A stretch of DNA of 45,714 nt, from positions 1 to 45,714 of the forward strand of contig CAYIZJ010000001.1 in the NCBI GenBank assembly GCA_964368045.1, read 5' to 3'. The translations under genes were made by a program, and so were the position numbers. Shown one piece after another: positions 6,286-24,264 of this stretch (the stretch's first letter is position 1; each line of letters begins with the position of its first letter). Under the pieces are notes generated by a model. The model saw only the letters and a list, made by a program, of their open reading frames with translations, did no database searches and was not told where the DNA came from. The DNA comes from an uncultured Muribaculaceae bacterium (GTDB lineage: Bacteria; Pseudomonadota; Alphaproteobacteria; Rs-D84).

Positions 6286-6993
6286 TTACATATTTTCTGG
6301 TTTTTCCATTTTGATTGTTTTGATTCTTTTGTTCAAAGATTCAACAACTTCGTCTGTGATATCCAAATGTTCTACATCACCACCCATACGAACAAAACGA
6401 CCGTCCATTACAAAAGACAATTTCTTTTTTGCAATGATGCCTTCGATAATTGGATCCAAATGTTCTGATTGGACTTCCATCAAAGTTTTTTGATATGCAG
6501 CTTCGATTTTTTGAGCTTTTTCAGTCAAGTCACGTTGCAACAAACCGATACGGTTTTGATATTCACCAACACGACGTTGCAAAGCTTCACGGGACAACAT
6601 GCTTTGAGATTTTTCAATTTCTGCTTTTTCTTCTTCCAAAGCTTCTTGTTCTTCCATCAAGTCTTTTTGCAAAGCTTCTTCGTATTTTTGTTTTTGTGAA
6701 CGCAAAGATTCCAATACGCCGGCTTCCAATTGAATTGCATCCATACGAACAACTGCGATGTTTAAATCAGACGCTTTTGCTGCATTTGCATCAACTGATT
6801 CCAAAGATTCTTTTACTGTTTTCAATTCCGCACCAGAAAAAGCACCGAACATTGCTGCACCACCCAAACCAACTGCCAAAACAATTGCTGCGATGATACC
6901 TGCTTTTTTGTATTTTTTAACCATTACCATTGCGGCATCTGTGCTAACCAAATTTTTAACAGATTTGGAACTGTTTTTTGATTTTTTTAACAT
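6286..6993 (-). CDS. Skp/OmpH-family periplasmic chaperone-like protein, membrane-anchored
   Basis: 235 aa with a Lys-rich N-terminus and one TM (AGIIAAIVLAVGLGGAAMFGAF). A long E/Q/L-rich coiled-coil arm (LRSQKQKYEEALQKDLMEEQEALEEEKAEIEK ... LQRRVGEYQNRIGLLQRDL) and a C-terminal DITDEVVESLNKR-type end follow. It lies next to lpxD-fabZ, the usual skp neighbourhood, but on the opposite strand. Confidence 0.65.
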   Translation of the reverse strand: MLKKSKNSSKSVKNLVSTDAAMVMVKKYKKAGIIAAIVLAVGLGGAAMFGAFSGAELKTVKESLESVDANAAKASDLNIAVVRMDAIQLEAGVLESLRSQKQKYEEALQKDLMEEQEALEEEKAEIEKSQSMLSREALQRRVGEYQNRIGLLQRDLTEKAQKIEAAYQKTLMEVQSEHLDPIIEGIIAKKKLSFVMDGRFVRMGGDVEHLDITDEVVESLNKRIKTIKMEKPENM

Positions 6994-7068
6994 TTTTCTT
7001 TCCTTTTTTCTTAAAGCTGCGGTCAGTATAGCAACTATTTTTTACAAATGCAAAGATGTTTTTTAAAA

Positions 7069-7764
7069 TTATCTTGCCGGAGATATTCTAAGTTCAACCC
7101 TGCGATTAGTAATTCTTCCGAATTCATCCTGTGCGGCTATTGGGCGGGACGAACCACGACCAACAACAAACATACGCACCGGATTTATTCCATCCTGTGA
7201 CAGATATATGGCAACCCTTTGTGCCATATCCATTGATAATTTATTTGCAGCCGACGAATCAGACATCGAATCTGTGTAACCTGCGACTTCGATAAATGTT
7301 GCGGGATATTTTTTTAATATGTCAGAGATTTTTGACAAAGTATCAATTCCTGTTGCCGATAATTGCGGCGCATTTAATTCAATCAAAGAAGTGCGAACCA
7401 AAACAACAACAACGTCTGTTCCGGCACGTTGCACAGAAATACCCGATTTACGCAAAGAATCATAAAGCTGGGATTCTATATTTGCCATATAACTTACCGC
7501 TTTGACATTGTCGTTTAATGCTTTGTCGCCATAATCCAAATTTTCATCGAATTTTACCTGACTTAACAACATTCCGCCCGACCCCAAAAACACGGGTCTT
7601 TTTGCGACTTTTGCCTGATCGGTCATATCGGACAAGCTTACCCCCGCCAAATATTTCGGCCACATTTCCCGCTGCGGTGTTTGATATTGGGCACAAGAAG
7701 AAACACAACAACCCAACACAATCATTGAAAATATTTTATTAAATAATTTCATATTTTTTTTCAT
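7069..7764 (-). CDS. OmpA/MotB C-terminal-domain lipoprotein (peptidoglycan-associated)
   Basis: 231 aa with a lipobox (MIVLGCCVSSC). The C-terminal OmpA-like domain reads IEVAGYTDSMSDSSAANKLSMDMAQRVAIYLSQDGINP...GRITNRRVELRISP. Its start overlaps the stop of the upstream pilin gene by 1 nt. Confidence 0.85.
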   Translation of the reverse strand: MKKNMKLFNKIFSMIVLGCCVSSCAQYQTPQREMWPKYLAGVSLSDMTDQAKVAKRPVFLGSGGMLLSQVKFDENLDYGDKALNDNVKAVSYMANIESQLYDSLRKSGISVQRAGTDVVVVLVRTSLIELNAPQLSATGIDTLSKISDILKKYPATFIEVAGYTDSMSDSSAANKLSMDMAQRVAIYLSQDGINPVRMFVVGRGSSRPIAAQDEFGRITNRRVELRISPAR

Positions 7765-8225
7765 TATCTTTTGATTATAAATGAAACATCATTGTCGCCG
7801 GTTTCCATACATGTAATCCCCGGTTCGACTGTTAATCCGTTAACTTTTACAATATCTGCCCAATCCAATTTTTTCACGACAAAGTATTTACAATCGTCCC
7901 CAGATAAATTAACCAAATTGATTGAAAATTCCGTACCTTCGACGTTTGACGATATATCCCAATCCATTCCACCCAGTGGCGGTCGCACATCTTTTAACGC
8001 CCCTGCTTTGATAAGACCGTCAATAGAAATACCTTTGAAATCACCCTTGGAAGAATATAATATTTTTGCATTATTTGCTGTTGTTTTAAGACTTTCTTCG
8101 GCAACTGTCCGTGACGTTCTGTCACGCAAAGAATTATATGTCGCAATTACAGCCGTTGTTAAAACACCCATTATCGCCAAAACACCCAACATTTCTATTA
8201 AAGAGCGTCCGCTTTCTGATTTCAT
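7764..8225 (-). CDS. Type IV pilin / pseudopilin
   Basis: 153 aa. It has a short leader and class III signal, MKSESG|RSLIEMLGVLAIMGVLTTAVIATY, with Glu at +5 after the Gly. Two C-terminal Cys (DDCKYF ... GITCMETG) are compatible with a pilin D-region disulfide loop. Confidence 0.8.
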   Translation of the reverse strand: MKSESGRSLIEMLGVLAIMGVLTTAVIATYNSLRDRTSRTVAEESLKTTANNAKILYSSKGDFKGISIDGLIKAGALKDVRPPLGGMDWDISSNVEGTEFSINLVNLSGDDCKYFVVKKLDWADIVKVNGLTVEPGITCMETGDNDVSFIIKR

Positions 8226-8237
8226 ATTAAATCCTTT

Positions 8238-9803
8238 TTATATTTTTTCGATATCTGATGTGTCGGCACCGAACAAAGACATTGCATCAGCGATTGCTGG
8301 ATCGGTTTCTAATTCTTGGTTATTTACTTCTTTTAAAGTTTGAACATTTTCAGATTGTTCCAATTTATCCAAAGTCCATTTTTCACCGGTATAATCCAAC
8401 AGCCAATTCAATAATTTCAAACCGAAATCTTTATCGCCTTTTCTGTCGAAATATTTTATACAATTATTTTCAATCGATGAAATTTCAACATTTTCTTTGA
8501 AATAAGAATACAATATTATTTCTTTGGAATCTTTTAACCCATCCGACAAAGAGTTTGCATCAGTTATCGTTTTTTTTGCGACAACAGGTTGAACCGTTGG
8601 TTGTACAACAGGTTTAGATTCAGTTTGCGGAACAGCTGTTCGCACCATTGGTTTTGCTTCGTTTTGCAGTATTTCTGAAACAGATGGCATTTGTGCAATA
8701 TGAATCAATCGAATTGTTATCATATCAAAACATTGTTTTTGATTTTTTGCTGCATTCATTTCTGGGACAGCTGTGATTAAGACCTGCCAGATACGGGACA
8801 AAGAATTTAACGATGCGTCACGGATAGTGTCGATAATTTTTTTCTTTTGCTCTTCGGAATAAGGACAAGTTTTAACATCCGAACTTTTTAAAACCGGATG
8901 CATTCTGGTTGCCCAATGGGTCCATTCCAACATATCAGACATTAACATAGACAAATCTGTACCTGCATTATATACAGAATCAATCAATTCCAAACAACCC
9001 GAAACATTTCCGGATAAAACAAAATCCATCAAATTTAAAACGATGTTTCTATCGGCTCTTTTTAACATATCCATAACGGCTGCTTCATCAACTTTGCCGG
9101 CCGTTTGTGCGATTGCCTGATCCAACAAAGACAGACCATCACGAACAGAACCGTCCGCAGAACCCGCAATCAATTCGTTTGCCCCATCTGTTAATTCAAC
9201 GTTTTCAGATTTTGCAATTTTTGAAAAATGTTCTTTTAATGTTTCGACACTAACCCGTGCCAAATCAAATCTTTGACATCTGGATAAAATGGTTACAGGA
9301 ATTTTACGAACTTCGGTTGTCGCAAGTATGAATATTACATGGCTTGGTGGTTCTTCCAATGTTTTCAACAAAGCATTAAAAGCAGGTGTCGATAACATAT
9401 GAACTTCGTCGATTATATAAACTTTGTATCTGGCATTTGTTGGTTTATATTGAACACCACCCAAAATATCACGAATATTATCAACCCCGCTGTGTGATGC
9501 GGCGTCAATTTCCAAAACATCAATATGTTGTCCGGATGAAATAGATAAACAGTTTTCGCAAACACAACACGGATTTTGGGCCGGAACATTTTCGGACAAA
9601 CAATTCAAAGCCTTTGCAAAAATACGGGCTGTACTGGTTTTTCCTGTACCACGAATACCGGTTAAAACGTATCCATGTGCGATGCGTCCCGTACCGATTG
9701 CGGTTGTCAAAGTTTTGACCAATACATCTTGGCCGATTAAAGATTTAAAATCCTGACTGCGATATTTGCGGGCAAGAACTGTGTAATTAGAACTCATGTC
9801 CAC
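8238..9803 (-). CDS. dnaX: DNA polymerase III subunit gamma/tau
   Basis: 521 aa with Walker A GIRGTGKTSTARIFAKALNC, a Cys module NPCCVCENCLS, IIDEVHMLS and ILSRCQRFDL (SRC motif). A Pro/Gln/Val-rich linker precedes a short C-terminal domain. Confidence 0.95.
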   Translation of the reverse strand: MDMSSNYTVLARKYRSQDFKSLIGQDVLVKTLTTAIGTGRIAHGYVLTGIRGTGKTSTARIFAKALNCLSENVPAQNPCCVCENCLSISSGQHIDVLEIDAASHSGVDNIRDILGGVQYKPTNARYKVYIIDEVHMLSTPAFNALLKTLEEPPSHVIFILATTEVRKIPVTILSRCQRFDLARVSVETLKEHFSKIAKSENVELTDGANELIAGSADGSVRDGLSLLDQAIAQTAGKVDEAAVMDMLKRADRNIVLNLMDFVLSGNVSGCLELIDSVYNAGTDLSMLMSDMLEWTHWATRMHPVLKSSDVKTCPYSEEQKKKIIDTIRDASLNSLSRIWQVLITAVPEMNAAKNQKQCFDMITIRLIHIAQMPSVSEILQNEAKPMVRTAVPQTESKPVVQPTVQPVVAKKTITDANSLSDGLKDSKEIILYSYFKENVEISSIENNCIKYFDRKGDKDFGLKLLNWLLDYTGEKWTLDKLEQSENVQTLKEVNNQELETDPAIADAMSLFGADTSDIEKI

Positions 9804-9866: not shown

Positions 9867-10184
9867 TTATTTCAAATTTTGGATAAAATCTGGGAAATCA
9901 GATTCTTCTTCGTCTGCAATTTGCCCTGATGCTTCTTCGACAATATCAGCAGGTGCAGGACAAGCGGGTGCTGATTTATCTTTGACATCACGACCTGCGT
10001 CTATTTTGCCCTGTTCAGCAGACACTTGACGACCGAAATGTTCCGCCATTTGCAACAAGCGTTCACGTTCAACAACATCAGATGTTTGTCTTGCTTGATC
10101 CATATATTGTTTACGTCTTTGACGCCATTTATGACAACGTTGAATCATCATTCCAACACCAGATTGATTTTTTTTATTTTGCAT
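9867..10184 (-). CDS. DUF4167-like small basic protein (alphaproteobacterial family)
   Basis: 105 aa. KQYMDQARQTSDVVERERLLQMAEHFGRQ resembles the core I recall for DUF4167 (...KYLxLARDAxxxGDxVxAENYLQHAEHYFR). The N-terminus is basic and the C-terminus acidic. Confidence 0.5.
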   Translation of the reverse strand: MQNKKNQSGVGMMIQRCHKWRQRRKQYMDQARQTSDVVERERLLQMAEHFGRQVSAEQGKIDAGRDVKDKSAPACPAPADIVEEASGQIADEEESDFPDFIQNLK

Positions 10185-10328
10185 ATTTTCTTAACTTATT
10201 TTTATTTGGAAGTCAATTTTGGTAACACTAAATTTACCGTTCTATGACATATATGATAATTCATATGAAAACCGATTGCAATAATTTTTTTCAATTGCTA
10301 TGATAATAAACAAAAGAGAGGATAATTT

Positions 10329-11684
10329 TTGCAAAAGCAATCAGGAAATTTTTTATTGCAAGCCTTATTAGCATTAACACTGATTATTGGTTTTATGCCT
10401 TTGTTTACGAACAAAATTGCAACCCAAGAACAAGATGCGCGGATGAATACAGCGGTTAAACAGATTGAAATGGCATCAACTGCGGCAAAAATATATATCC
10501 AGGAAAATTTGAATGACATCAATTTTGAAACAACGACTATATCGGGGGATAAATTTACGGATTTATTGGAACCGTATGGATTGCCGCTGGGATTTATTCC
10601 AAAAACTTCGTACAACCAAGATTTGTCATTAGTTATTGTAAAAAGCGACACAGAAATTTATGCATATATTCAGGGAACCGGTGGCAATATGACCGAAAAC
10701 GAACTGGCACAACAGGCACGCCGAATTGGTTTTTACGGATCATACGAAGACAACATTATATACGCAATTGTCCCATTAAGTGAAGCTTTCCAAGATTTGG
10801 TTCCATTAAAAGAAAGAAATTTAACCAATTCTGGTTTTTTGGTCGATTTAAATATGGGTGATTTTGATATTGAAAACACTTCTATGCTATTGGGTCGAAA
10901 TGGGGAATTTGAAACAACCCAAATAAAAAATCTTTCATTATTAGGAATCGAAACTACGTTTGACGAACGAAACGAAATAAAAAATATGAATTCCAACATC
11001 GTTGTATTTCAATCCGATCAGGGTGATGCGGCTTTAACAATTAACACAGGTTTGTTGCAAACTGATTTTTTATCTGCTCGGACTTTTTCTGAATACGGTT
11101 CGGCTTCGAATTTATTGGCGGAAAATGTTGCAGTTTACGATTTCACCATGTCCGCCGGCAGCACCAGTTTTACAGGCCCCGCCGATTGGGAAGTGCGTGG
11201 AGACGTTATTGCGAACGACACGTCTTTTTCAACCGAAAGACTGGAAATAACATCTTTTATTGATGCGTCCGGCGGTCAGGATGTTTTCATCAGTCCAGAT
11301 TCTTTGGAATATTCTACCAATACAGGCATAACAACAGAATATATATACACAGCAAACATTACAATGCGTGACCAAACGTCCAGTGCGATATTACAAGGAC
11401 AAACAGGTGCGATTATATTAGACATCCGCCCTGCTGGAACATCTTTATTGCCTGATGCTTTGGTTTCCTGGATTAACAATGACGAAATTAAAATTTTAAA
11501 AGAACCGCTTGAACAAAGCTCGGATACAATTTCGTGCAAAGAACACATAACCACATTAGGCGGAACATATAATGCAAAATCTGTATCGCAATATATTATT
11601 TGCAGATATTTATTTTTACAAGCATTAGAAGAAAGAATAAATGCAAAAGAATGTTTATTACAAGGTGGGTCAAACTGTGTTTAA
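10329..11684 (+). CDS. Large prepilin-like protein, paralog 1 (Gln at +5, GspK-like head)
   Basis: 451 aa with a TTG start preceded by SD AGAGAGGA. The head is MQKQSG|NFLLQALLALTLIIGFMPLF. The central motif is DLNMGDFDIENT (nt 10848-10886), and the C-terminus holds four Cys. Confidence 0.65.
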   Translation: MQKQSGNFLLQALLALTLIIGFMPLFTNKIATQEQDARMNTAVKQIEMASTAAKIYIQENLNDINFETTTISGDKFTDLLEPYGLPLGFIPKTSYNQDLSLVIVKSDTEIYAYIQGTGGNMTENELAQQARRIGFYGSYEDNIIYAIVPLSEAFQDLVPLKERNLTNSGFLVDLNMGDFDIENTSMLLGRNGEFETTQIKNLSLLGIETTFDERNEIKNMNSNIVVFQSDQGDAALTINTGLLQTDFLSARTFSEYGSASNLLAENVAVYDFTMSAGSTSFTGPADWEVRGDVIANDTSFSTERLEITSFIDASGGQDVFISPDSLEYSTNTGITTEYIYTANITMRDQTSSAILQGQTGAIILDIRPAGTSLLPDALVSWINNDEIKILKEPLEQSSDTISCKEHITTLGGTYNAKSVSQYIICRYLFLQALEERINAKECLLQGGSNCV

Positions 11685-12894
11685 AAAGAAGTTAAAAATT
11701 TTTAATGCAACCCGATACGAACTGCAAAATCAACAACGTGGTGCCAGTTTATTGGAAATCATGTTAGTGTTTTCTATTGTTGCAGCGTTAAGTCCTTTTT
11801 TCTATTCCCAAATTGCGGACATTTCCAAAAGTATGCAAGACGTTGCAACCGCAAAAAAAGTTATAACCATTCGTGAAAATGCTTTGAATTTCGTGCGATT
11901 AAATCAGGATAAATGGCCCGATATCGCACAAATAATTTTGTCCGATGCAGAATTGGATTCCATCAGCCCTATGCCGGAACTTGGTTTAATCGATAAATAT
12001 CCCGTACAAGATTCTTATGTAACTGATATATATTTGATATTTTCATTTCCCGACGGGGCAACACGCAGTGCACAAATCGCACAAAAAATTGGACCGGACG
12101 CAACAATTGTTTCAAATGATGGTGTTGCATATACCGCCAGCTGGGCGATAAGTTCACCTGATTTTTTACCTGGGGATTTGGTATACAAAATAAACTATGA
12201 TTTTAATACACAAAACATTGAAAAATATTTACATAAAACAGCATCCGAAAACGAAGAATTGAATATAATGGCCCGACCATTAAATATGAATAATTTTGAT
12301 TTACAAAATGTTGGCAACCTCACGGCAACTTCGTCTTCGTTTGACGAAGTCACAGCAGCATTTTTACAAGCCACAGATTTATATGCATCAAACATATATT
12401 TTTCCAAAGGTGCAAATATCGAAAGTGATGAAATAAATATAAAAAGCATACGTGTGAACAAAGATATAACCGGATTCAATGAAGTCGCAACAAAAACTTT
12501 GAACAAACAAGGATTTTCAACCGACGGCGGTATTATTGCAAATCGTGCCAATATTTACAATTCTGTAAACGTTGGAAATAATTTAAATTTAAATCCATCG
12601 GGCAGTTTAAGTGTATCCGGCTTTGCGGGAATTATGGCACATTATGTTGAAACAGCTTATTTGGCAACGGACGAATTGATTTTCCATAATAATTTTGGAA
12701 TCACATTGTCCAGCGAACTTTTGATGTCAACAGAAACACCTTTGAAAATCGGCAATTGGTCTTTTCCGTCCAGCACACCGCCATCATTCACCGATTTCGG
12801 ATTGGGTCGAACCGTTATTCCACAATCTATTGAAACAACAGAATTTGAAAAAATAATGGATTCTGCATGGCAGGATATCCCACAAAAACAATAA
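11677..12894 (+). CDS. Large prepilin-like protein, paralog 2
   Basis: The ORF is open from ATG 11641. GTG 11677 is preferred because it has SD AAGGTGG 7 nt upstream and forms an 8-nt GTGTTTAA overlap with the upstream stop. The head is ...QNQQRG|ASLLEIMLVFSIVAALSPFF (Glu +5). The central motif is PLNMNNFDLQNV (nt 12280 onward), and a beta-rich N/S/G repetitive C-terminal half follows. Confidence 0.65.
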   Translation: MFKKKLKIFNATRYELQNQQRGASLLEIMLVFSIVAALSPFFYSQIADISKSMQDVATAKKVITIRENALNFVRLNQDKWPDIAQIILSDAELDSISPMPELGLIDKYPVQDSYVTDIYLIFSFPDGATRSAQIAQKIGPDATIVSNDGVAYTASWAISSPDFLPGDLVYKINYDFNTQNIEKYLHKTASENEELNIMARPLNMNNFDLQNVGNLTATSSSFDEVTAAFLQATDLYASNIYFSKGANIESDEINIKSIRVNKDITGFNEVATKTLNKQGFSTDGGIIANRANIYNSVNVGNNLNLNPSGSLSVSGFAGIMAHYVETAYLATDELIFHNNFGITLSSELLMSTETPLKIGNWSFPSSTPPSFTDFGLGRTVIPQSIETTEFEKIMDSAWQDIPQKQ

Positions 12895-12907
12895 AGATAA
12901 AAAAGAA

Positions 12908-14224
12908 ATGAAATTATTTAAAAGAGCTTTTTTTGAAAATCAACGTGGTGCAACAATGGTTGAATTTTTGTTGACACTTGGGCTGGCGGCGGCAATGATT
13001 CCATTTTTACTGGGGTTTCAAACCGATCGTATTCGTCGTGCCGAAAACATTGCAATAACTCGTGAAATGCAATTATTTCAAAACGCACTGGAAAAATACA
13101 TAACGACAAATAAAAGCGATTTGGAAAAAACTATTGGAAAAAGCATTACACGTGTTGATATTGTTTCTTTATCCGATTACGGCATCAGCGAACAGACTTT
13201 GAATAAATACAAAGACAAAATTCAACTTCGGATTTTAAAATCAGACAACGATAAAAATCAAATCGTTTTACAGGGTGTTATCGTTTTAAATGATGCAGAC
13301 ATTACATCTTTTCGCACGAACGAAATTGTAAATTTGGGTGATTCAAATATCGGATACATCCAAGAAAACCAAGCATACGGTGTTGGTGGCACTTGGCAAA
13401 CAAATACCAAAAACCTTGACTTAATAAAAACAGATGGTTTGGTAAAAATAACAAAACCGAAAATCAGCCAAGACAATTATTTATGGCGTTTACCATCGGA
13501 CAACAATTCAGATGCAACGATGTTAAATTCTTTGAACATGGCAAACCGTGACATTACGAATGTAAAATTCTTTGATGGTAAATATGGAAAATTTGGCGAA
13601 TATATCAAAACCCAAGAAATTCAATCCGACACAGTTGTATTTGAAACTCGTAGTAATTTAGGTGGCCAACTTAATTCAGCCAGTGCGACAATTTCAGGAA
13701 CACTATCTTCGGATTCGACCAACATGTATGTTTCCGACACGATAAGTTTGACGGGTGTCGGAAAATTTGATTCGATTGAATCCAATGATTTATGGGTGAA
13801 CGATTTAAATTTATCCGGATTATACGTATCGGATGAATTCAGCGAAGAACCTGCGATTTTAAAAATCCTACGCAAACTGGAATTAACAGAAGGCACAATA
13901 TATGCAAATTACACAACAGTTGGATTTGACGGATCAATTACACCACGATTGATAATAGGCAGCCGTATCGAAGACGCTTCGAATCCTGAATACTTTTGGG
14001 ATGCCGATTTAAAATCTGCGAAGTTTTCCGACGTTACTTTTGCGGAATTAAATCGATTATCAACAGAGTTAAACCGATTGCATCGCAGCAAATTAACAGT
14101 TTCTACGAAAATATTTCAAATCCCAGCGAATAACCAAAACGCAACAATTACAGATTTTATCAATGCTTTGAATGAAATCGAAGCCCTGATAAAAATAAAA
14201 TATCAGCAGTTGAATTTAGAATAA
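12908..14224 (+). CDS. Large prepilin-like protein, paralog 3 (TadE-like head)
   Basis: 438 aa. The head is MKLFKRAFFENQRG|ATMVEFLLTLGLAAAMIPFLLG (Glu +5, xVEF as in TadE-type heads). The central motif is YLWRLPSDNNSDATMLNSLNMANRDITNV (nt 13532 onward). Confidence 0.65.
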   Translation: MKLFKRAFFENQRGATMVEFLLTLGLAAAMIPFLLGFQTDRIRRAENIAITREMQLFQNALEKYITTNKSDLEKTIGKSITRVDIVSLSDYGISEQTLNKYKDKIQLRILKSDNDKNQIVLQGVIVLNDADITSFRTNEIVNLGDSNIGYIQENQAYGVGGTWQTNTKNLDLIKTDGLVKITKPKISQDNYLWRLPSDNNSDATMLNSLNMANRDITNVKFFDGKYGKFGEYIKTQEIQSDTVVFETRSNLGGQLNSASATISGTLSSDSTNMYVSDTISLTGVGKFDSIESNDLWVNDLNLSGLYVSDEFSEEPAILKILRKLELTEGTIYANYTTVGFDGSITPRLIIGSRIEDASNPEYFWDADLKSAKFSDVTFAELNRLSTELNRLHRSKLTVSTKIFQIPANNQNATITDFINALNEIEALIKIKYQQLNLE

Positions 14225-14243
14225 TATATGGTATATATAAGAT

Positions 14244-14747
14244 ATGAAAAAAACTTGTAACGTTTGCAAAACTAATTTTTATACGGATAAATCATTATCT
14301 GGGGCCGTTCGTTGTCCGATGTGCGGAATGATGATACACAATAAAAAGCCAGCGAATAAAAAATCATTACTTACTTTGTTTGCATCAATTTGTGCATTGT
14401 TGGCAGTATCTGTGTTTTCTTATTATTCTATAAAAACCCATCGCATTGACAATATGACTAAAAACCCACTGATTGCCGAAGTATTAAAAACAAACGTCAT
14501 AACAGTCGAAGGTGAAAAACAAATCGAAGTTTATGGACGCATAAAAAACATCAGTGAATATGTATACGGTGTACCAAATGTATTTGTAATATCCAAAGAC
14601 AAAGATGATAATATTTTAAGCATTCAAAAATTTATGCCACCTGCAACATTACTGGGTTCGGATGAATATGTTGATTTTAAATATTTGTTATCCGGTTCGA
14701 TTTATGACACCGCAAAAATAACCGTTCAATTAAAGGATGTTAAATGA
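14244..14747 (+). CDS. MJ0042-type zinc-ribbon membrane protein with DUF3426-like C-terminal domain
   Basis: 167 aa. It begins with CxxC...CxxC (CNVCKTNFYTDKSLSGAVRCPMCG), then one TM (LLTLFASICALLAVSVFSYY). The C-terminal beta domain carries IEVYGRIKNISEYVYGVPNVFVISKDKDDNIL. Confidence 0.6.
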   Translation: MKKTCNVCKTNFYTDKSLSGAVRCPMCGMMIHNKKPANKKSLLTLFASICALLAVSVFSYYSIKTHRIDNMTKNPLIAEVLKTNVITVEGEKQIEVYGRIKNISEYVYGVPNVFVISKDKDDNILSIQKFMPPATLLGSDEYVDFKYLLSGSIYDTAKITVQLKDVK

Positions 14748-15208
14748 TTAAAAAGCTTATTTTATTCGTATTTTTAATATCAAATTTCGGGATAGCGGCA
14801 GCAGCGGATTCGGATGCACCGTCACGTGTTACTGTTTTTTCAACCAGTTCCGACTGGCAGGCGATAACAGGATTGCGATTAAACCAACATCGTGTTGAAA
14901 TCATACCCGACAAAACAATCATAGATCAGGGTTTGGAATTATATTACTTGGACGGATTTCCATGTTACGGCGAAGGCGGCCGAACTTTTTATTGGCAGGG
15001 ACCTTGGGGTGAACATAGTGATTGGGATATAATGGTTGTGTGTATTTATCCGCCAACTGAACTTCTTTTTGCATGGCATCATGCAAAACAAGATGCATTC
15101 CAAGAAACAACCACAGGATTGTTAAAATGCCCAGTTGAAGGCGAACACACATTGACCGTCAATATGTCAAAATGCACATTTGAAAAAGACTGGAAGGAAT
15201 ATAAATAA
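14744..15208 (+). CDS. Secreted protein, function unknown
   Basis: 154 aa with a signal peptide (LILFVFLISNFGIAAAADS), four Cys and a Trp-rich core (FYWQGPWGEHSDWD). It has an ATGA overlap with the upstream gene and a TAATG overlap with the downstream gene. Confidence 0.55.
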   Translation: MIKKLILFVFLISNFGIAAAADSDAPSRVTVFSTSSDWQAITGLRLNQHRVEIIPDKTIIDQGLELYYLDGFPCYGEGGRTFYWQGPWGEHSDWDIMVVCIYPPTELLFAWHHAKQDAFQETTTGLLKCPVEGEHTLTVNMSKCTFEKDWKEYK

Positions 15209-16179
15209 TGTCAGAAAATCGTAACTTTACAATATATGAATCAGATGCAGGTCAAAGATTGGATAAATTTTTGGCGACTATGATGCCGGAATATTCCAGA
15301 AACGAAATCCAACGGTTCGAAGTAACCAAAACAATTGATGGAATATCAATGCCGGCAAAGTTTTCGGAAAAAATTAAAACAGGTACGGAATATGCGGTAT
15401 TGGTCCAAGGCTTGGAAAAACCAGACACCGATTTAAAACCTGAAAACAATTTTGATTTGACAATATTGTTCGAAGACGAAGATATAATTGTTGTTAACAA
15501 GCCTCGTGGTGTTGTTATGTATCCAGCCGCCGGTAATGCAACGGGGACATTGGTTCAAAATATTTTATCACACACACATTTATCCGCATTGGGCGGCAAC
15601 GTTCGCCCTGGGGTTGTTCATCGTTTGGACAAAGACACCAGTGGGGTTGTTGTTTTGGCAAAATCTGATGCGGCTTTCAAAGAATTAACAAAAACTTTTG
15701 CGGACCACACCCTGACCCGTAAATATATTGCAATCTGTTGGGGCGTTCCAACATGGGAAAGTGCCGATATCACTGGTAACATTGCACGATCTTCTCGTAA
15801 TCGCCAAAAAATGTCAATGGTTAAAACCGGTGGCAAACATGCCGAAACCGAGGTCGAAGTCGTTAACATATGGGGACGGGAAAAAATTTGTGAACTTCGT
15901 TGTGCTTTGAAAACAGGTCGCACCCATCAAATCAGGGTTCATTTATCCACACACGGATTTCCTGTTTTATGTGACCCTATTTATGGCCGTGGTTCAACCC
16001 GTCTGGGCAGTGTTAAAAATATGGATTTATTGGACTTTTTATCCGAAAATAATGGTCAAATGCTGCATGCAAAAATATTGGAATTTGATCACCCTGTAAC
16101 GGGCGAAAAAATGAAATTTAACACAAAATTACCATCCGACATGCAAGAATTGAAATATATTTTAGAATCCGATCGTTAA
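15208..16179 (+). CDS. rluD: RluA-family 23S rRNA pseudouridine synthase (RluD-like)
   Basis: 323 aa with an S4-like N-terminus (GQRLDKFLATMMPEYSRNEIQR). It carries the catalytic motif HRLDKDTSGVVVLAKS and GRTHQIRVHL. Confidence 0.85.
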   Translation: MSENRNFTIYESDAGQRLDKFLATMMPEYSRNEIQRFEVTKTIDGISMPAKFSEKIKTGTEYAVLVQGLEKPDTDLKPENNFDLTILFEDEDIIVVNKPRGVVMYPAAGNATGTLVQNILSHTHLSALGGNVRPGVVHRLDKDTSGVVVLAKSDAAFKELTKTFADHTLTRKYIAICWGVPTWESADITGNIARSSRNRQKMSMVKTGGKHAETEVEVVNIWGREKICELRCALKTGRTHQIRVHLSTHGFPVLCDPIYGRGSTRLGSVKNMDLLDFLSENNGQMLHAKILEFDHPVTGEKMKFNTKLPSDMQELKYILESDR

Positions 16180-16264
16180 TTTTTATTCCAAAAACTTTAT
16201 TATTTTTATTTGTTTTAAATGTTTTTTTATGATATAATATCCGTATGATAACGGAGTAAAGAGA

Positions 16265-19228
16265 ATGAAAATTCTGAACAAAACAATTGGAATTATCGCA
16301 ACTATGGCTGTTTTGCCTGCTGCGGTTGCTGTAACATACAGAACAACGGGAACGACATATTCATCCCGTATGCCGACTATGACGGGTGTGATAAATTCGA
16401 CAACATCTGCGTCAACATCGACCAGTTCGTCCACAACCACCAGCGTTGACGAAGTCAACAGACTGTGCGTTGATAATTATGTGGGCTGTTTAAAGGGTGC
16501 GGATGTCTGCGGAACAAGTTTCCAAGAATGCACCAACAATACATTGCTTTTCGCAAAACAAGGTATGTGTGCAAGTACTTTATCGGCTTGTTCATCTGCT
16601 GCGATACAAACATTGTACGGAATTGGTTCAACGACTTCGTTTGCTAACAAAGACAGCAACGGCGAATACGTTTATCCTGCGGACACCAGTGTTTTGGGAC
16701 AAATGGTCGAAGCCGCATTTTTAAACAACCGTTATGACACATCAACCTGTGTTCGCAGATATGAAACATGTTTAACACGTGGGGATGTTTGTGGTTCGGA
16801 CTTTGAATTATGTACAACAGATACAGAATTTAAAAAACAAAAATTATTCTGCGAATCGACGCTGGGCCGTTGCCAAGAAGACGGTGTACTTGAATTATTC
16901 GGCACAACAACCCCGTCTGCAAGTCCATCCAGCACCAGTCGTTTGGGTATAAAAATCACCGAAGGTGCCGCATTGGCTGCGATTAACGCAGTTTCGACTT
17001 GTTACAAAGTTGCCGATCAATGTATTTTAAATACTTGTGCAACAAATCCGTACAAGTGTAAAGCTGGTTCCGATATGGCAATCGCTGATGCTGCGGACGT
17101 TATCAATAACGAAGACGCAACATCGAACAATGAAATATCTTTTGAAAGTGTTACCAGTTCACAGGTTCGTGGATTTATAGAAAACAATTGCTTTGACACA
17201 ATCGGTGCGAACAAATATTGTTATGCGACATTTTTGGGTGGTGGTGCAATGCCGTCAAATTCCCAATTACAGGACCAAGACAACAGATATGATGTCTTTG
17301 CCGAAGCATACGCATCCCGTATGAACAATTCAATGGAATCAAAAATCGATGATTTGATTATAAGCTTTGATAAAAAAACAAAAGAACGCTGTGCATCAAC
17401 AATTACCAATTGTGCAATGGGCGCATGTGGTGACGGTGTTGGTTCGGCTTGTTATTCTGCGGCTTTTGCCGAAGGTAACACAGTCAAAGGTGTAACCAGC
17501 GATACAACGCTAAGCGATATTAAATTCAGCTGTGAATCGATTGTAAACAACGATGATTACTGTAAATACGCAGGTGCAACATTTGATAATGCAACGGGTA
17601 CTTTAAGCTTCCTGGGGGATGGTTTATTTGATTTCTTGTTCACATCGATGGACGACGATGTCACAACACCGGATCCAATTGGTGTGGTTGGTGAATTGAA
17701 TGCAAAGTTAAGCAGTTCATACAATGCGGCCGCATTAAACAGAATGGAAGATCAATGTGAAATATTTGCAACACAATGTGTTATATCCGAATGTGGCGAT
17801 GGTTTTGAAAATTGCTACCGCAACAGAAACGATATCTATTCAACCCTGACTGCAACGACCAGTGATTCATTTAACAAAAGTATGAACAAAGTCGGTGGTG
17901 TATTGGATTACACAGTTATTATTGGGCTATGTTTGAATCAGGTAAAAAACAATTCGGTCTGTAATGAACATTTACGTGCCGAAGCCGCCCGTTCCGAAGT
18001 CGGCAAAAATACAAGCAATGTTTGGGGTTCCGATACAACAATCCGCAACAGCTGGTTGGGTGCAGGTGCCTATGACGTTTCCGAAGACCTAAGAGAAGCA
18101 ATACAACAACAGGATGAAAACGGTCAGGATTTGTGTAAAACACAAAGCGGTGTAATCTGTGTATGCGGCACGACCAGTGGTGGTCAGGCATGCGACACAC
18201 CGTATACAATTTCTGAATACGATTACACAATCAACGCGGCTGGAACCAATTTATTCAGTCAAATCATATTCGATTTGGAAAAAGAAGCCCAGGCCGAATA
18301 TAACGCAAAATTAACAAAACAACAAAATATGTGTTTATCCGGAAATACTGGTATCACAGGTTTCAAAGTCGGCGGAACATTTATGTGGGCAAAATTGAAA
18401 AACAATAAAATCCCATCTGATTATCCGGTAAACGGTTTGGAAGACAAAGATTTTGTTTCCAGCAATGAAATACACAACAGTTTTTGCCGTATTCGTGTGA
18501 CATTGCAATCCGAAGACAAAGCGATACAGGATTTGTTGAAAAAAGATGATAAATCAACAGCATACTTTGCGGCCGGTGATTCATTTACCTGCGGAAGCTG
18601 GTTAACACAAGGCGACTTGGATGATATTACAAAGGTTATTTCCGAAGACGTTATGGATGACCGTGAAGCGGGTGATAAAAGAACCAAAACATGGGCCACA
18701 ATTGGCGGTGTTGCGGCAGGCTTGTTGGGTGGTGGATTTGGTGGAAACGCTATTGAAACCAAATTCGGCGGATTATGGGGCGATCCAAAAGCCGTATATG
18801 ACAGCCGTGAAGAATCATCTGCTGCTTTAACCACAGCAAAAAGACAGCTGAGCAATCTGGAAGAAGAATTAGCTGATTTAGAAGAAAGAAACACAGATAA
18901 CTCTCTTGCTAATGATATCGCTGACTTAGAAGAAGAAATCGCTGAAAAAGAAGATGATATCGATAGATTAGAAGAAGATCTAAGAACAGCCGAAGATACA
19001 AAAACCAAACAATGGGCCGGTACAACAATCGGTGCGGGCGTTGGTGGTGCGGTTGGTGGTGTTCTGGGATGGGGCATTGCAAAAAGTGCAACAACTGCCG
19101 CAACCGAGGCCGCCGTTGACGAAGCTGTTATGGAATGGTTGGACAGCATGAGCAGCACAGTTAAATGTTACATAGGTCCTGACGAGGTTGGTTCATACGG
19201 CGACGTTATATCAACCGAAATGGAATAA
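16265..19228 (+). CDS. Giant secreted/surface Cys-rich repeat protein with C-terminal double glycine zipper and acidic coiled coil
   Basis: 987 aa with a signal peptide (IIATMAVLPAAVAVT) and an S/T-rich linker (TSASTSTSSSTTTS). Two clear ~52-aa Cys-module repeats lie at nt 16466-16621 and 16748-16903, with further CxnC clusters downstream. The C-terminus reads GGVAAGLLGGGFGG ... LEEELADLEE...IADLEEEIAEKEDDIDRLEEDL ... GAGVGGAVGGVLGWG. Confidence 0.75.
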   Translation: MKILNKTIGIIATMAVLPAAVAVTYRTTGTTYSSRMPTMTGVINSTTSASTSTSSSTTTSVDEVNRLCVDNYVGCLKGADVCGTSFQECTNNTLLFAKQGMCASTLSACSSAAIQTLYGIGSTTSFANKDSNGEYVYPADTSVLGQMVEAAFLNNRYDTSTCVRRYETCLTRGDVCGSDFELCTTDTEFKKQKLFCESTLGRCQEDGVLELFGTTTPSASPSSTSRLGIKITEGAALAAINAVSTCYKVADQCILNTCATNPYKCKAGSDMAIADAADVINNEDATSNNEISFESVTSSQVRGFIENNCFDTIGANKYCYATFLGGGAMPSNSQLQDQDNRYDVFAEAYASRMNNSMESKIDDLIISFDKKTKERCASTITNCAMGACGDGVGSACYSAAFAEGNTVKGVTSDTTLSDIKFSCESIVNNDDYCKYAGATFDNATGTLSFLGDGLFDFLFTSMDDDVTTPDPIGVVGELNAKLSSSYNAAALNRMEDQCEIFATQCVISECGDGFENCYRNRNDIYSTLTATTSDSFNKSMNKVGGVLDYTVIIGLCLNQVKNNSVCNEHLRAEAARSEVGKNTSNVWGSDTTIRNSWLGAGAYDVSEDLREAIQQQDENGQDLCKTQSGVICVCGTTSGGQACDTPYTISEYDYTINAAGTNLFSQIIFDLEKEAQAEYNAKLTKQQNMCLSGNTGITGFKVGGTFMWAKLKNNKIPSDYPVNGLEDKDFVSSNEIHNSFCRIRVTLQSEDKAIQDLLKKDDKSTAYFAAGDSFTCGSWLTQGDLDDITKVISEDVMDDREAGDKRTKTWATIGGVAAGLLGGGFGGNAIETKFGGLWGDPKAVYDSREESSAALTTAKRQLSNLEEELADLEERNTDNSLANDIADLEEEIAEKEDDIDRLEEDLRTAEDTKTKQWAGTTIGAGVGGAVGGVLGWGIAKSATTAATEAAVDEAVMEWLDSMSSTVKCYIGPDEVGSYGDVISTEME

Positions 19229-19257: not shown

Positions 19258-19284
19258 AAACCGCCCATTGGGCGGTTTTTTTTA
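19258..19284 (+). terminator. Rho-independent terminator of the 987-aa gene
   Basis: AAACCGCCC ATT GGGCGGTTT followed by T8. Confidence 0.9.
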
Positions 19285-19338
19285 TTATAATTCAGACAAA
19301 TCCATTCCAAGACACCGCCGCCATCCCCCTTTCCCCCC

Positions 19339-19382
19339 GTCGTCATTGCGAGAAGTCGTCCGGCTTTGCGGCAATCTATTCG
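19339..19382. repeat. 44-nt imperfect-palindrome repeat, copy A
   Basis: GTCGTCATTGCGAGAAGTCGTCCGGCTTTGCGGCAATCTATTCG. It matches copy B at 38 of 44 positions. ATTGC...GCAAT arms form an imperfect hairpin. Confidence 0.7.
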
Positions 19383-19466
19383 AATTCTTTATAAAAAGAT
19401 CACCACGCTAACACTCGTGATGACGGTGCAGACGGGCTTTCTTTCCGTGATGACGACAGTAAAAAG

Positions 19467-19510
19467 GTTGTCATTGCGAAAAGTCATCAGACTTTGCGGC
19501 AATCCATTCG
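19467..19510. repeat. 44-nt imperfect-palindrome repeat, copy B
   Basis: GTTGTCATTGCGAAAAGTCATCAGACTTTGCGGCAATCCATTCG, in direct orientation 128 nt downstream of copy A. A third partial CGTCATTGCA lies at 19524-19533. Confidence 0.7.
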
Positions 19511-19532
19511 TCCTAAAATCCCACGTCATTGC

Positions 19533-19562
19533 AAAAAAACAAACCGCCCAGATGGGCGGTTT
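19533..19562 (-). terminator. Rho-independent terminator of the TPR gene (minus strand)
   Basis: The minus strand reads AAACCGCCC ATCT GGGCGGTTT GTTTTTTTGC. The stem has the same sequence as the plus-strand terminator at 19258. Confidence 0.85.
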
Positions 19563-19584
19563 AGTGTTCAAACAAAGTTTATTT

Positions 19585-22062: not shown

Positions 22063-24264
22063 ATGGCAGGAAAATTCAACATTTTATCAGCAAGCGGAAA
22101 AGGCAAAGGATTAAAAATATTCCGGTCTTCGTCGTACAAAGAACACTTGCAAAAGCCTATGGCTCAACTGTTCTGGCAAATCCGTTGGCATTCTGGGATT
22201 TGGTTAACCTCGGCCTTTGCTTTTGCGATGGCTTTTCCGGCTGAACATTTATGGCGATATGGCTGGTCACCCGCAACACTTGACTGGATTGTCGTATATT
22301 TACAACAAATGGTTTATACGTTGGGGTTTTCTGTTTTGGCCGAAATACCGGCATGGGTAATGCGAACGGTTACGCAAACTGATTTTGCCTGTATGGTGCC
22401 ATTATTTCCTGTGATATTATATTATATTTTATGCGATACGACCTTTGTCGAAGAATTCAATCCGCACGGTTCTGATAAATTCGATGAAAAGTCTTCGAAC
22501 AAGGCATCCGAAAAAGACATCAAAGAAATGGGATTGTTAAACGGATTTATGATGGTTTTGGGGTATTTCAAGAAAAAGCCTTTGAAGATGAATGAATGTT
22601 TATCGACTTTGTGTTTGGCACCCCCTGGAACGGGTAAAACATATGGACTTGTGCTGCCTACGATTTTTGATTCGACCGACGTTTCTATGATTATTAACGA
22701 CCCAAAGCCGGAATTGATGCAGATTTCGTCCGCATATCGGGCACAATTTGGCCCTGTATTCATTATGAATTGGGGCGGACAATCCGATCCAGAAAAGGGA
22801 ATTTATTACCCGTCATGGAACCCATTGTCCCCAGACCAAGTCCCAACAAACGAAGGCGAACGTGGTACATACATAGATATGATTACAGCAATTTTGGTTT
22901 CCGATAAAACAGCGTCCGCAAATGACCCACACTGGAAATTAACCGGTCGTGCGGGTTTATCGGGAATGCTTATATTTATGATTTCCAAAGTTGAACGGGC
23001 ACGTGCGGATGATTATTTTTATCACCGTATGAAAACACAAACTTTTGACAAAGAAGATGCCGCCGTTTTATCCGATTATTATATGGCGATGACCAATAAT
23101 CCAAACGCTTATGCGGCATTGGAATTGCTTCGCAATGGTGAATTAAATGAATTTAATTATGTTCATATTGGAACATGGGAAAACATCCCAACCGCATGGG
23201 TGGGACGTGAATGTTCAATACCGATGTTAATGGATTGGTTAAATCAAAATCAGTTAAGAATTAACGAAGAAATCGAAACAATGAAAAAACAGGGTGATCA
23301 AATGGCTATGATGAATGCCGACCCTATGAAGAAAATTTATACAGATGCTGTTGATGAAGCACTTCGATATTCATACGCACATCGTTGTATAATCGAATTA
23401 ACCCAATTGGGCAACACTGCGGACAAAGAACGCGCGTCCATCATATCCACAATTATGGCGGGATTGGGCGTTTTCCGAAATCCATCGGTACGAAACAGAA
23501 CCAGCCATTCCGATTTCCAATTCAAAGATTTGCGTGGAATGATTGATCCACGTGATGGCAAAAGCAAACCTGTTACAGTTTATTTATCCATTAACATGGT
23601 TGATGCCGAAGCATTAAATCCAATTACCGGTATTTTCATTGAATTGATGTCTTCGTTTTTGTTGGCAAATCCACCAAACCACAAAAGAAATAATTTACAA
23701 ATGGGTAAATATCCTGTTTTATTCGTATTGGACGAAATGCCAAAAATGCAAAAATTAGAAGCCGTAATCAAAGGACCGGATTTGGGACGTGGTCAAAAAA
23801 TTTCATACCTGATTATAGGTCAAGACATTCACCAAATTTCTGAAAAATATGGTGCGGACGCTGCGTCAACTATTATTTCAACAACCGCCGCCAAGGTTGT
23901 TTTGCGACAAAATGATATGGATACCGCAAAAAAGTTTTCCGAAATGATGGGCGAAAAAATAAAAATCAAAACGGACAAAGAAGGCAAAGATTCAAAATCA
24001 AACGAAATGTTATATTCGCCGATGGACATTATGAAACTGGCCGATGATAAACAGCTTGTGATATTCCAAGGTTGGTACCACAGACCGATTGAAGCCGACA
24101 AACAAATGGCGTTCAAAGATCCACGTTTAAAATCATATATGGATATGGGACAAACCAGTCCTTTGCCAGAATTTTTAATTCCAAAACACCACAAATTGAT
24201 GCGGTATCCTGGGAAGCCAAAAATTTATAATCCTATGACACACGAAACCAAAGAATTGGATTAA
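22063..24264 (+). CDS. Type IV secretion coupling protein (VirD4/TraG family ATPase)
   Basis: 733 aa with N-terminal hydrophobic helices. It has Walker A STLCLAPPGTGKTYGLVLPT, then IINDPKPEL (compare DPKGE), Walker B-like PVLFVLDEMPKM, and LIIGQDIHQISEKYG (compare QSxxQL..YG). The start codon is uncertain; the next Met is MAQLFWQ at codon 33. Confidence 0.8.
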   Translation: MAGKFNILSASGKGKGLKIFRSSSYKEHLQKPMAQLFWQIRWHSGIWLTSAFAFAMAFPAEHLWRYGWSPATLDWIVVYLQQMVYTLGFSVLAEIPAWVMRTVTQTDFACMVPLFPVILYYILCDTTFVEEFNPHGSDKFDEKSSNKASEKDIKEMGLLNGFMMVLGYFKKKPLKMNECLSTLCLAPPGTGKTYGLVLPTIFDSTDVSMIINDPKPELMQISSAYRAQFGPVFIMNWGGQSDPEKGIYYPSWNPLSPDQVPTNEGERGTYIDMITAILVSDKTASANDPHWKLTGRAGLSGMLIFMISKVERARADDYFYHRMKTQTFDKEDAAVLSDYYMAMTNNPNAYAALELLRNGELNEFNYVHIGTWENIPTAWVGRECSIPMLMDWLNQNQLRINEEIETMKKQGDQMAMMNADPMKKIYTDAVDEALRYSYAHRCIIELTQLGNTADKERASIISTIMAGLGVFRNPSVRNRTSHSDFQFKDLRGMIDPRDGKSKPVTVYLSINMVDAEALNPITGIFIELMSSFLLANPPNHKRNNLQMGKYPVLFVLDEMPKMQKLEAVIKGPDLGRGQKISYLIIGQDIHQISEKYGADAASTIISTTAAKVVLRQNDMDTAKKFSEMMGEKIKIKTDKEGKDSKSNEMLYSPMDIMKLADDKQLVIFQGWYHRPIEADKQMAFKDPRLKSYMDMGQTSPLPEFLIPKHHKLMRYPGKPKIYNPMTHETKELD

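Follow-up and report, generated by a model that had tools for sequence, protein, structure and literature searches.

Several groups of described bacterial proteins provide points of comparison for the gene at positions 16265-19228 (+ strand) of a 45,714-nucleotide stretch of DNA (hereafter the window), which forms part of contig CAYIZJ010000001.1 in the assembly GCA_964368045.1 of an uncultured bacterium assigned to the alphaproteobacterial order Rs-D84. This gene codes for a 987-amino-acid (aa) protein rich in cysteine (38 Cys, 3.9%). Chlamydial OmcB and OmcA belong to a host-dependent bacterium and are Cys-rich envelope proteins exported by Sec, and in the Helicobacter Hcp proteins (Sel1-like repeats) secreted α-helical repeats are held by regularly spaced Cys staples, with one disulfide per helix pair. 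The neisserial and streptococcal variable surface antigens combine a conserved scaffold with a recombining variable domain. Finally, SlyB, YfgH, OsmB and YiaD place an α-helical, two-transmembrane (2TM) glycine-zipper hairpin in the outer membrane (bioRxiv 10.64898/2025.12.22.696046).

By analogy, the 987-aa protein would seem to resemble two kinds of protein at once, namely the disulfide-stapled exported envelope proteins and the surface proteins in which a scaffold carries a recombining variable domain. We regard it as the representative of a new family and of a new architectural variant within a known general kind, as opposed to a categorically new system. The analogy with the chlamydial Cys-rich envelope proteins, which had been drawn in a sequence-only reading of the window, holds at the conceptual level: no match to Chlam_OMP6 or another envelope family was recovered (a Pfam scan at E<=1 returned coiled-coil families only), nor was there any profile or fold match to OmcB or OmcA. 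Unlike these proteins, its Cys pattern suggests intramolecular six-Cys modules and not intermolecular cross-links, and the Rs-D84 lineage, for its part, retains peptidoglycan and rod-shape genes. The protein likewise differs from Hcp in having six Cys per unit with a different spacing, in giving no Pfam match to a Sel1 or TPR profile at E<=1, and in possessing a C-terminal part, with two glycine zippers flanking a variable tip, that has no Hcp counterpart. With the SlyB/YfgH/OsmB/YiaD group it would share a diderm envelope, putative paired GxxxG-rich and weakly hydrophobic helices, and a bulk that is predicted to be periplasmic; however, its zippers are split by a variable domain of 54-305 aa instead of a short loop, and its body is an unrelated Cys-rich helical domain of 750 aa. 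The comparison with the variable surface antigens concerns the pattern of variation, in which a conserved body carries a sharply bounded segment of old alleles with elevated synonymous (dS) and nonsynonymous (dN) divergence and fixed Cys, there being no homology to them and no silent tip cassettes or repeats within the window, and the surface exposure of the variable segment is here a prediction.

The family and its Cys-rich body

Searches recovered more than 755 homologs, the top 120 at E<1e-260. Every named homolog is annotated as a hypothetical protein, and they come from metagenome-assembled genomes (MAGs) labelled Rickettsiales or Alphaproteobacteria bacterium or Candidatus Enterousia, with sources spanning human, chicken, ruminant, rodent and termite guts; the identical 987-aa protein was already recorded from the same contig (P0001). 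When one genome per GTDB species was scanned, 214 genomes proved to carry relatives, and the best 80 relatives reside on 80 different assemblies, which suggests that each genome carries a single copy. Further, an exhaustive hidden Markov model (HMM) search against 1.84 billion cluster representatives gave 265 matches, all of them family members or fragments among those listed. The family is thus confined to gut MAGs of the order Rs-D84/Ca. Enterousia, and even its distant members (E 1e-30 to 1e-130) preserve the overall plan. The genomes of this order are described as measuring about 1 Mb or less, as lacking the tricarboxylic acid cycle and standard nutrient transporters, and as probably belonging to partner-dependent organisms (PMC12306168). 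With its many homologs, its invariant Cys and a ribosome-binding site and terminator of its own (see below), the 987-aa gene is a real, non-artefactual and well-conserved feature.

Two of the more divergent loci show departures from the simple single-gene arrangement. In one distant lineage (L083) there are two divergently transcribed paralogs, at 6855-9560 (- strand; 901 aa) and 10001-13414 (+ strand; 1137 aa), whose first 51 residues are identical and whose remainders have diverged, suggesting recent gene conversion of their 5' ends. On a contig from a termite-gut MAG (L081, 1-19012), the most distant homolog examined (P0254) is found along with dnaB between phage-like genes coding for terminase, portal, capsid, lysozyme and Bbp19. 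A prophage origin was considered for the 987-aa gene itself and rejected, since chromosomal housekeeping and envelope genes surround it in the window, as they do its counterparts at 80 related loci.

The N-terminus of the protein displays the features expected of an exported polypeptide. Residues 1-22 (16265-16330, +) form a predicted Sec-type signal peptide, with MKILNK followed by a hydrophobic core and P-AAVA, as judged from the sequence and from the family consensus PAAFA/xTARPSV; its Kyte-Doolittle (KD) hydropathy is 1.86. The predicted cleavage site has the consensus motif AFA, which is of the signal peptidase I type, and there is no Cys in aa 1-67, so there is no lipobox. Next comes a conserved mature N-terminal peptide (aa 23-42; 16331-16390, +) with the consensus ARPSV-x-GTA-xx-RMPTMT, in which R35, P37, T38 and M39 are nearly invariant, and which is also kept in the distant homologs. 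It is succeeded by an S/T-rich low-complexity linker (aa 43-62; 16391-16450, +), recognizable in the sequence and modelled with a predicted local distance difference test score (pLDDT) below 40.

The body proper opens with two modules of 52 aa that share an identical Cys spacing, C-x6-C-x6-C-x6-C-x12-C-x6-C: module A1 (aa 68-119, C68-C109; 16466-16621, +) and module A2 (aa 162-213, C162-C203; 16748-16903, +). They align without gaps with 20 of 52 positions identical (38%; BLASTP E 2e-13), and their family sub-alignments match with a probability of 99.6% and E 8.6e-24 in a profile-profile comparison (hhalign). The distant homologs carry an A2-type module only, indicating that A2 is ancestral and that A1 arose by a later duplication. 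The sequence-only reading had noted the open reading frame (ORF) of 987 aa, its signal-peptide-like N-terminus, the S/T-rich stretch and these two homologous modules, all of which were recovered in the present analysis, the modules at the same nucleotides.

The recurring Cys signature noted in the same reading is likewise present: it occurs three times downstream of A2, as C-x6-C-x4-C-x6/7-C, and is each time followed by a C-x9-C pair. These occurrences define unit B1 (aa 246-319; 17000-17221, +), with the signature C-x6-C-x4-C-x6-C at C246-265, unit B2 (aa 376-433; 17390-17563, +), with C-x6-C-x4-C-x7-C at C376-396, and unit B3 (aa 498-566; 17756-17962, +), with C-x6-C-x4-C-x6-C at C498-517. 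In the AlphaFold2 (AF2) model the three have a common layout, in which a long helix with three Cys precedes a helix-turn-helix holding the C-x9-C pair. Their mutual profile similarity is not significant (hhalign E 0.003-0.5), and it is on the Cys spacing and the predicted secondary structure that we regard them as probable true repeats. The body is completed by a mixed α/β C domain (aa 616-800; 18110-18664, +) with invariant Cys at 624, 634, 690, 741 and 776, in addition to the pair 632/643.

Conservation of the Cys positions among orthologs, a lack of which would have refuted the sequence-only reading, is extreme: 36 of the 38 are Cys in at least 99% of 120 aligned homologs of 43-64% identity. 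The other two, C632 and C643, make up a lineage-specific pair, the members of which occur together in about 2% of the 120 homologs. The 36 invariant Cys sort into six units of six Cys each, i.e., A1, A2, B1, B2, B3, and a last one formed by the five of the C domain plus C968 of the C-terminal tail. The AF2 model, based on a 67-sequence alignment, is mostly helical with a mean pLDDT of 68, rising to approximately 80-90 over aa 60-520, and predicts a helical hairpin at aa 842-911 and tail strands at 966-983; a separate model of the C-terminal part (aa 606-987, 17-sequence alignment) reaches a pLDDT of only 57.5.

None of these modules corresponds to a named domain, as had been surmised earlier, with no match above threshold in Pfam, NCBIfam, PHROGs or PADLOC and only sub-threshold coiled-coil or transmembrane (TM)-like matches at aa 830-950. 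A comparison of the family profile with all PDB sequences gave nothing significant, the best relevant match being to XaxA/YaxA (E 0.03-0.09) on the coiled coil. Foldseek searches with the full model returned generic helical repeats throughout, with a best E of 0.27 against the PDB and of 0.11 against BFVD. The matches of the C-terminal model (EmrA, HlyD, MacA, SipB) are generic coiled-coil hairpins at E>0.3 and were not used as evidence. The six-Cys helical modules appear to represent new folds.

A variable tip between two glycine zippers

The most informative part of the protein, which the sequence-only reading missed, is its C-terminal arrangement of zipper, hypervariable tip, zipper and tail. 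After the C domain the elements follow in the order helix, zipper 1, tip, zipper 2 and a 43-aa tail. Glycine zipper 1 spans aa 807-830 (TKTWATIGGVAAGLLGGGFGGNAI; 18683-18754, +) and glycine zipper 2 spans aa 916-944 (QWAGTTIGAGVGGAVGGVLGWGIAKSATT; 19010-19096, +). Between them lies the hypervariable tip (aa 831-915, 85 aa; 18755-19009, +), which in this protein is a Cys-free, acidic coiled-coil hairpin. The conserved tail (aa 945-987; 19097-19225, +) combines a helix and three short strands with the lone invariant Cys968. Two such G/A-rich segments of 20-29 aa, modelled at pLDDT <50, are present in all full-length homologs, 54-305 aa apart, and both are preceded by basic residues and a Trp. 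Their median KD hydropathy over 19 residues, 1.22 and 1.48, is below the classical value for inner-membrane TM segments and compares with 1.83 for the signal peptide and with 1.30 at the hydrophobic maximum of the soluble body. This weak hydrophobicity, together with the basic residues before both zippers, argues against classical inner-membrane stop-transfer helices. Literature searches returned nothing on the 987-aa protein family, and both the zipper-tip-zipper arrangement and the Cys modules appear to be previously undescribed.

The distribution of Cys between these regions obeys a striking parity. The tip has 0, 2, 4, 6 or 8 Cys in 101 of 102 sequences, the single odd count belonging to a mis-segmented sequence, and this evenness is maintained over 78 tip clusters with less than 40% mutual identity. 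The first and last tip Cys mostly adjoin the zippers, and no CxxC metal motifs were found in the tips of the homologs examined. The body, on the other hand, carries an odd number (29-39, mostly 35) and the tail a single Cys or occasionally three, such that their sum is even in 67 of 68 sequences; Cys gains, as in the case of C632/C643, come in pairs. The odd body count along with the single tail Cys predicts that the tail is locked onto the body by a disulfide. Further, the parity as a whole predicts that body, tip and tail are all situated in oxidising compartments. Roughly 18 intramolecular disulfides per chain would be expected from these counts, the support for them being statistical as opposed to chemical. 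The earlier characterization of the protein as a disulfide-rich extracellular or envelope protein is accordingly reasonable, because it is predicted to be exported, it is modular, its Cys are under extreme constraint, and the parity statistics favor disulfides; the structural or host-interaction role proposed along with it is conjectural.

In terms of variability, the tip stands apart from the remainder of the protein. Its mean identity to the query among homologs is 17%, as against 45-71% for the modules, and its length ranges from 54 to 305 aa, whereas module lengths are nearly fixed. A single cluster at 90% identity (207 members) contains at least four types of tip allele, with indels among them, whereas hardly any variation is seen in its zippers and tail and the four Cys of the tip are fixed. 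Estimates by the Nei-Gojobori method for four alleles gave a dS of 0.5-1.36, a dN of 0.20-0.42 and a dN/dS of 0.28-0.40 for the tip, as compared with a dS of 0.12-0.29, a dN of 0.008-0.021 and a dN/dS of 0.04-0.14 for the body. That the dS of the tip greatly exceeds that of the body indicates that the tip alleles are much older than the surrounding gene and have been moved by recombination. This is the kind of pattern that balancing or diversifying selection would typically produce at exposed sites, and the tip loop between the zippers has the look of a recognition or antigen site on the cell surface.

These features can be combined into a tentative reading, to which we accord somewhat less than even confidence, of the protein as a Sec-exported, disulfide-stapled envelope protein with a glycine-zipper hairpin anchor that displays a variable tip. 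The precursor, to go by its N-terminus, would be exported via Sec and lose its signal peptide. Its body would then fold oxidatively into a mostly α-helical structure of six 6-Cys units with approximately 18 disulfides, as the statistics suggest. The chain would leave the body as zipper 1, form the tip and return as zipper 2, after which, on the evidence of Cys parity, Cys968 of the tail would lock onto the body. The GxxxG-rich segments could jointly form a helical-hairpin membrane anchor, most likely in the outer membrane as in SlyB and YfgH, so that the slowly evolving body would stay periplasmic and the tip would be shown on the cell surface. The cause of the variation observed in the tip may be host immunity, phage or partner-cell recognition.

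Several points weigh against this reading. A disulfide-closed domain of 70-300 aa would need to cross the outer membrane by a route that is unexplained. The basic residues before both zippers misfit a simple charge-asymmetric hairpin, and there is no lipobox. The zippers give no Pfam glycine-zipper match, the only one from NCBIfam being to YiaD (E 0.93, 9 bits as against a 175-bit cut-off). The tip of this particular protein, a Cys-free and highly acidic coiled coil, would also suit the cytoplasm. Additionally, the tip dN/dS of 0.28-0.40 is not above 1, and relaxed constraint with recombination might account for the pattern too. Lastly, Rs-D84 genomes are reported to be without respiratory chains (PMC12306168), leaving the electron sink for DsbA/DsbB-type oxidation unclear; the collected loci, which cover a tiny part of each genome, gave no match to a regular expression for the CPHC motif of DsbA-like proteins. 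The most ambitious form of the proposal, which we consider unlikely, is a new α-helical surface display protein, the two zipper helices of which would span the outer membrane of a genome-reduced, partner-dependent gut alphaproteobacterium and the balanced-polymorphic, disulfide-closed tip of which would set partner-cell, host or phage recognition, above a periplasmic scaffold of novel fold with 18 disulfides. If true, the making of such a scaffold in an anaerobe devoid of a respiratory chain would imply an unconventional oxidative-folding route.

An alternative placement would be in the inner membrane, with body and tail in the periplasm, the zippers as ordinary TM helices, and the coiled-coil tip as a cytoplasmic spacer or signalling module. 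It would draw on the K/R residues on the tip side of zipper 2, on the acidic and Cys-free tip in the window, and on a few weak matches to proteins that couple coiled coils with TM segments: phage XhlA (PF10779; 20.8 bits as against a gathering threshold of 34.7, aa 865-932), TIGR04211 SH3_and_anchor (E 2e-5) and a PHROG 'hemolysin' (aa 880-931). However, all of these fall below curated cut-offs, and zipper 1 is likewise preceded by basic residues, on what would be the periplasmic side. The zipper hydropathy of 1.2-1.5 is under the stop-transfer level. Moreover, the even number of tip Cys in every correctly segmented homolog across the 78 divergent clusters, with a spacing that is staple-like and not Zn-like, is hard to square with a cytoplasmic tip, and we regard this topology as improbable.

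Gene neighbourhood and the other Cys-rich genes

Expression of the 987-aa gene appears to be governed by signals of its own. The 85-nt gap that separates it from rluD contains a promoter-like element with an extended -10, TTGTTT-N17-TGaTATAAT (16210-16238, +), a putative site that was read off the sequence and is unlisted by a consensus scanner. This is followed, within 16240-16256 (+), by a small hairpin in the 5' untranslated region (16240-16255) and, 8 nt upstream of the ATG, by a GGAG ribosome-binding site (16253-16256). At the other end, 30 nt past the stop codon, lies a strong intrinsic terminator with a 9-bp G+C stem, AAACCGCCC..GGGCGGTTT, and a T run (19258-19286, +). The G+C fraction of the gene, 0.40-0.42, is slightly above the window mean. 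Within 19258-19563 a spacer of 250 nt lies between two G+C hairpin terminators (AAACCGCCCA..TGGGCGGTTT) that are almost identical and point in opposite directions. The spacer contains a pair of direct repeats of 44 nt each (19339-19382 and 19467-19510; 86% identical; GTCATTGCGAgAAGTC...TTTGCGGCAATC); the whole may be a small repeat element at a synteny breakpoint downstream of the gene.

In keeping with the preferred reading, the neighbours of the gene are envelope genes, namely skp, lpxD, lptD, a bamB-like gene, that of an OmpA-like lipoprotein, and a set of pilin-like genes; the inter-species identity of the 987-aa body is comparable to that of Skp, LptD or RluD. The pilin-like genes comprise a small type IV pilin/pseudopilin-like gene at 7764-8225 (- strand), with the N-methylation motif G/RSLIE and a C-terminal Cys pair, and three genes at 10329-11684, 11641-12894 and 12908-14224 (+ strand) for unusually large proteins (417-451 aa) with prepilin-like N-termini (G/NFLLQ, G/ASLLE and G/ATMVE), for which no other family match was found. 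About 70 of 80 Rs-D84 loci retain this block, and the window contains no ATPase, platform or secretin gene. In the published description of Rs-D84, mention of type IV pili is confined to another lineage, UBA9783 (PMC12306168). At one distant locus (L082) a homolog at 13832-16354 is followed by genes for a TcpQ-domain protein and a lipoprotein-type secretin.

This setting raises the possibility that the protein is cargo of a type IV pilus or type II secretion-like machine that would move it, folded and disulfide-rich, across the outer membrane, either as a secreted or displayed adhesin or as an α-helical membrane-inserting factor with zippers that enter a partner or host membrane. Consistent with this, the gene stands at the end of the pilin-like block retained in most relatives, TcpQ and secretin genes directly follow one distant homolog, and the lineage is believed to depend on a partner and to do without standard transporters. 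There are also sub-threshold matches to XaxA/YaxA, which, like XhlA, feature a long coiled-coil hairpin beside hydrophobic membrane-inserting segments, the weak matches lying at aa 850-950. However, rluD intervenes between the pilin-like genes and the 987-aa gene with its own promoter-like site and terminator, a search of the window and of 80 related loci (L001-L080) turned up neither secretin nor TcpQ, and genomes of about 1 Mb show broad conservation of synteny in any case. In its slow rate of evolution the body resembles periplasmic housekeeping proteins. The toxin-family matches, for their part, amount to coiled-coil noise: XaxA/YaxA scores 29.2 bits against an NCBIfam cut-off of 125, does not figure among the best 50 Foldseek matches listed (all with E > 0.001), and has no counterpart here in terms of a partner subunit gene. 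Membership of the XaxA/YaxA or XhlA families is unsupported, the matches covering less than 10% of the protein far under the cut-offs and being likely compositional. As regards type IV pilus tip adhesins, there is no Pfam or NCBIfam match to a PilC/PilY1 β-propeller and the model is mainly helical. We thus look upon export as cargo with considerable doubt, and retain anchoring in the cell's own envelope as the preferred, if tentative, interpretation.

Two additional secreted Cys-rich proteins are encoded in the window, one of 662 aa with 21 Cys (4233-6221, +) and another of 269 aa with 11 Cys (1776-2585, +). The three genes had been taken for members of a single Cys-rich family; they are instead three separate lineage-specific families, given that no HMM or profile-profile homology was detected between them. 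With all filters off (hmmsearch --max), the 987-aa family HMM matched only its own ORF among the 37 ORFs of the window. Likewise, hhalign comparisons of the 662-aa and 269-aa families with the whole 987-aa family and with each of its modules gave probabilities of at most 0.2%. Each of the two families has its own invariant Cys set, and searches of PDB sequences with the two proteins gave no matches. The signature motif RCAQPKCATGGC previously reported from the 662-aa protein is indeed present in its opening C-x6-C-x4-C-x4-C-x12-C-x6-C, a hybrid with a B-type start and an A-type end; however, C-x6-C-x4-C is short, with a chance occurrence in a 21-Cys protein of about 0.02 by a rough estimate.

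Though unrelated by these measures, the genes are genomically linked in relatives: in 31 of the 45 loci that have at least 6 kb of downstream sequence, the 10 kb following the 987-aa homolog contain a 662-like and/or a 269-like gene, often accompanied by a gene for a 623-1657-like outer-membrane protein. In the window, by contrast, the 662/269 block is placed 10-14 kb upstream instead. The counterpart of the 662-aa protein in most relatives is two adjacent genes (about 590-740 aa and 230-270 aa), so that the single gene in the window looks like a fusion; the protein includes a long Q/A-rich low-complexity coiled-coil segment. Compared with its homologs (about 410-480 aa), the 269-aa protein lacks some 150-200 aa at the N-terminus, and only aa 67-269 align. 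Many Enterousia genomes also have, between the 987-aa homolog and the 662-like gene, a gene for a leucine-rich-repeat protein of about 585-600 aa (LRR_5, BspA-like; e.g., L002 13152-14963, - strand, and the 3' ends of L085-L088), which is absent from the window.

Elsewhere in the window, 22063-24264 codes for a VirD4/TraG-type coupling protein of type IV secretion (Pfam E 7e-53) with no adjacent VirB-like genes in the window and with two lipoprotein genes, one of them LpoB-like, after it. A tandem pair of paralogous lipoprotein genes (42528-43529 and 43544-44557) shows near-identical signal peptides (92% nucleotide identity), G/N/T-rich 'GGNTGG' repeats after the lipobox and 3' ends with 76% nucleotide identity; no family match was found for either.

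Predicted disulfides and possible partner contact in Rs-D84

Instead of forming disulfides, the Cys could conceivably bind a metal or cofactor, or stay as free thiols, in a strict anaerobe without a respiratory chain, such chains being reported missing in Rs-D84 (PMC12306168) and no Dsb gene having been seen in the limited sequence at hand, but this is very improbable in view of the export signal, the heptad C-x6-C spacing inside predicted helices with no CxxC motifs, and the strict pairwise parity in three separately counted regions with Cys gained in twos. Some 18 disulfides per chain in an anaerobe reported as non-respiring would pose a testable puzzle of oxidative protein folding.

Bacteria of the Rs-D84/Ca. 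Enterousia group are common inhabitants of the guts of humans, livestock, birds and termites, and probably depend on a partner organism (PMC12306168). The family described here represents a near-universal, lineage-defining envelope protein of these organisms without a relative of known function. Its biological role, as far as can be gleaned from its sequence features, could be that of an envelope scaffold and/or of a partner-contact protein in an obligately partner-dependent bacterium. The sharply delimited, allelic tip is a candidate surface determinant under selection that could serve in strain typing, and might provide an entry point to the partner, phage or immune pressures under which these bacteria live.

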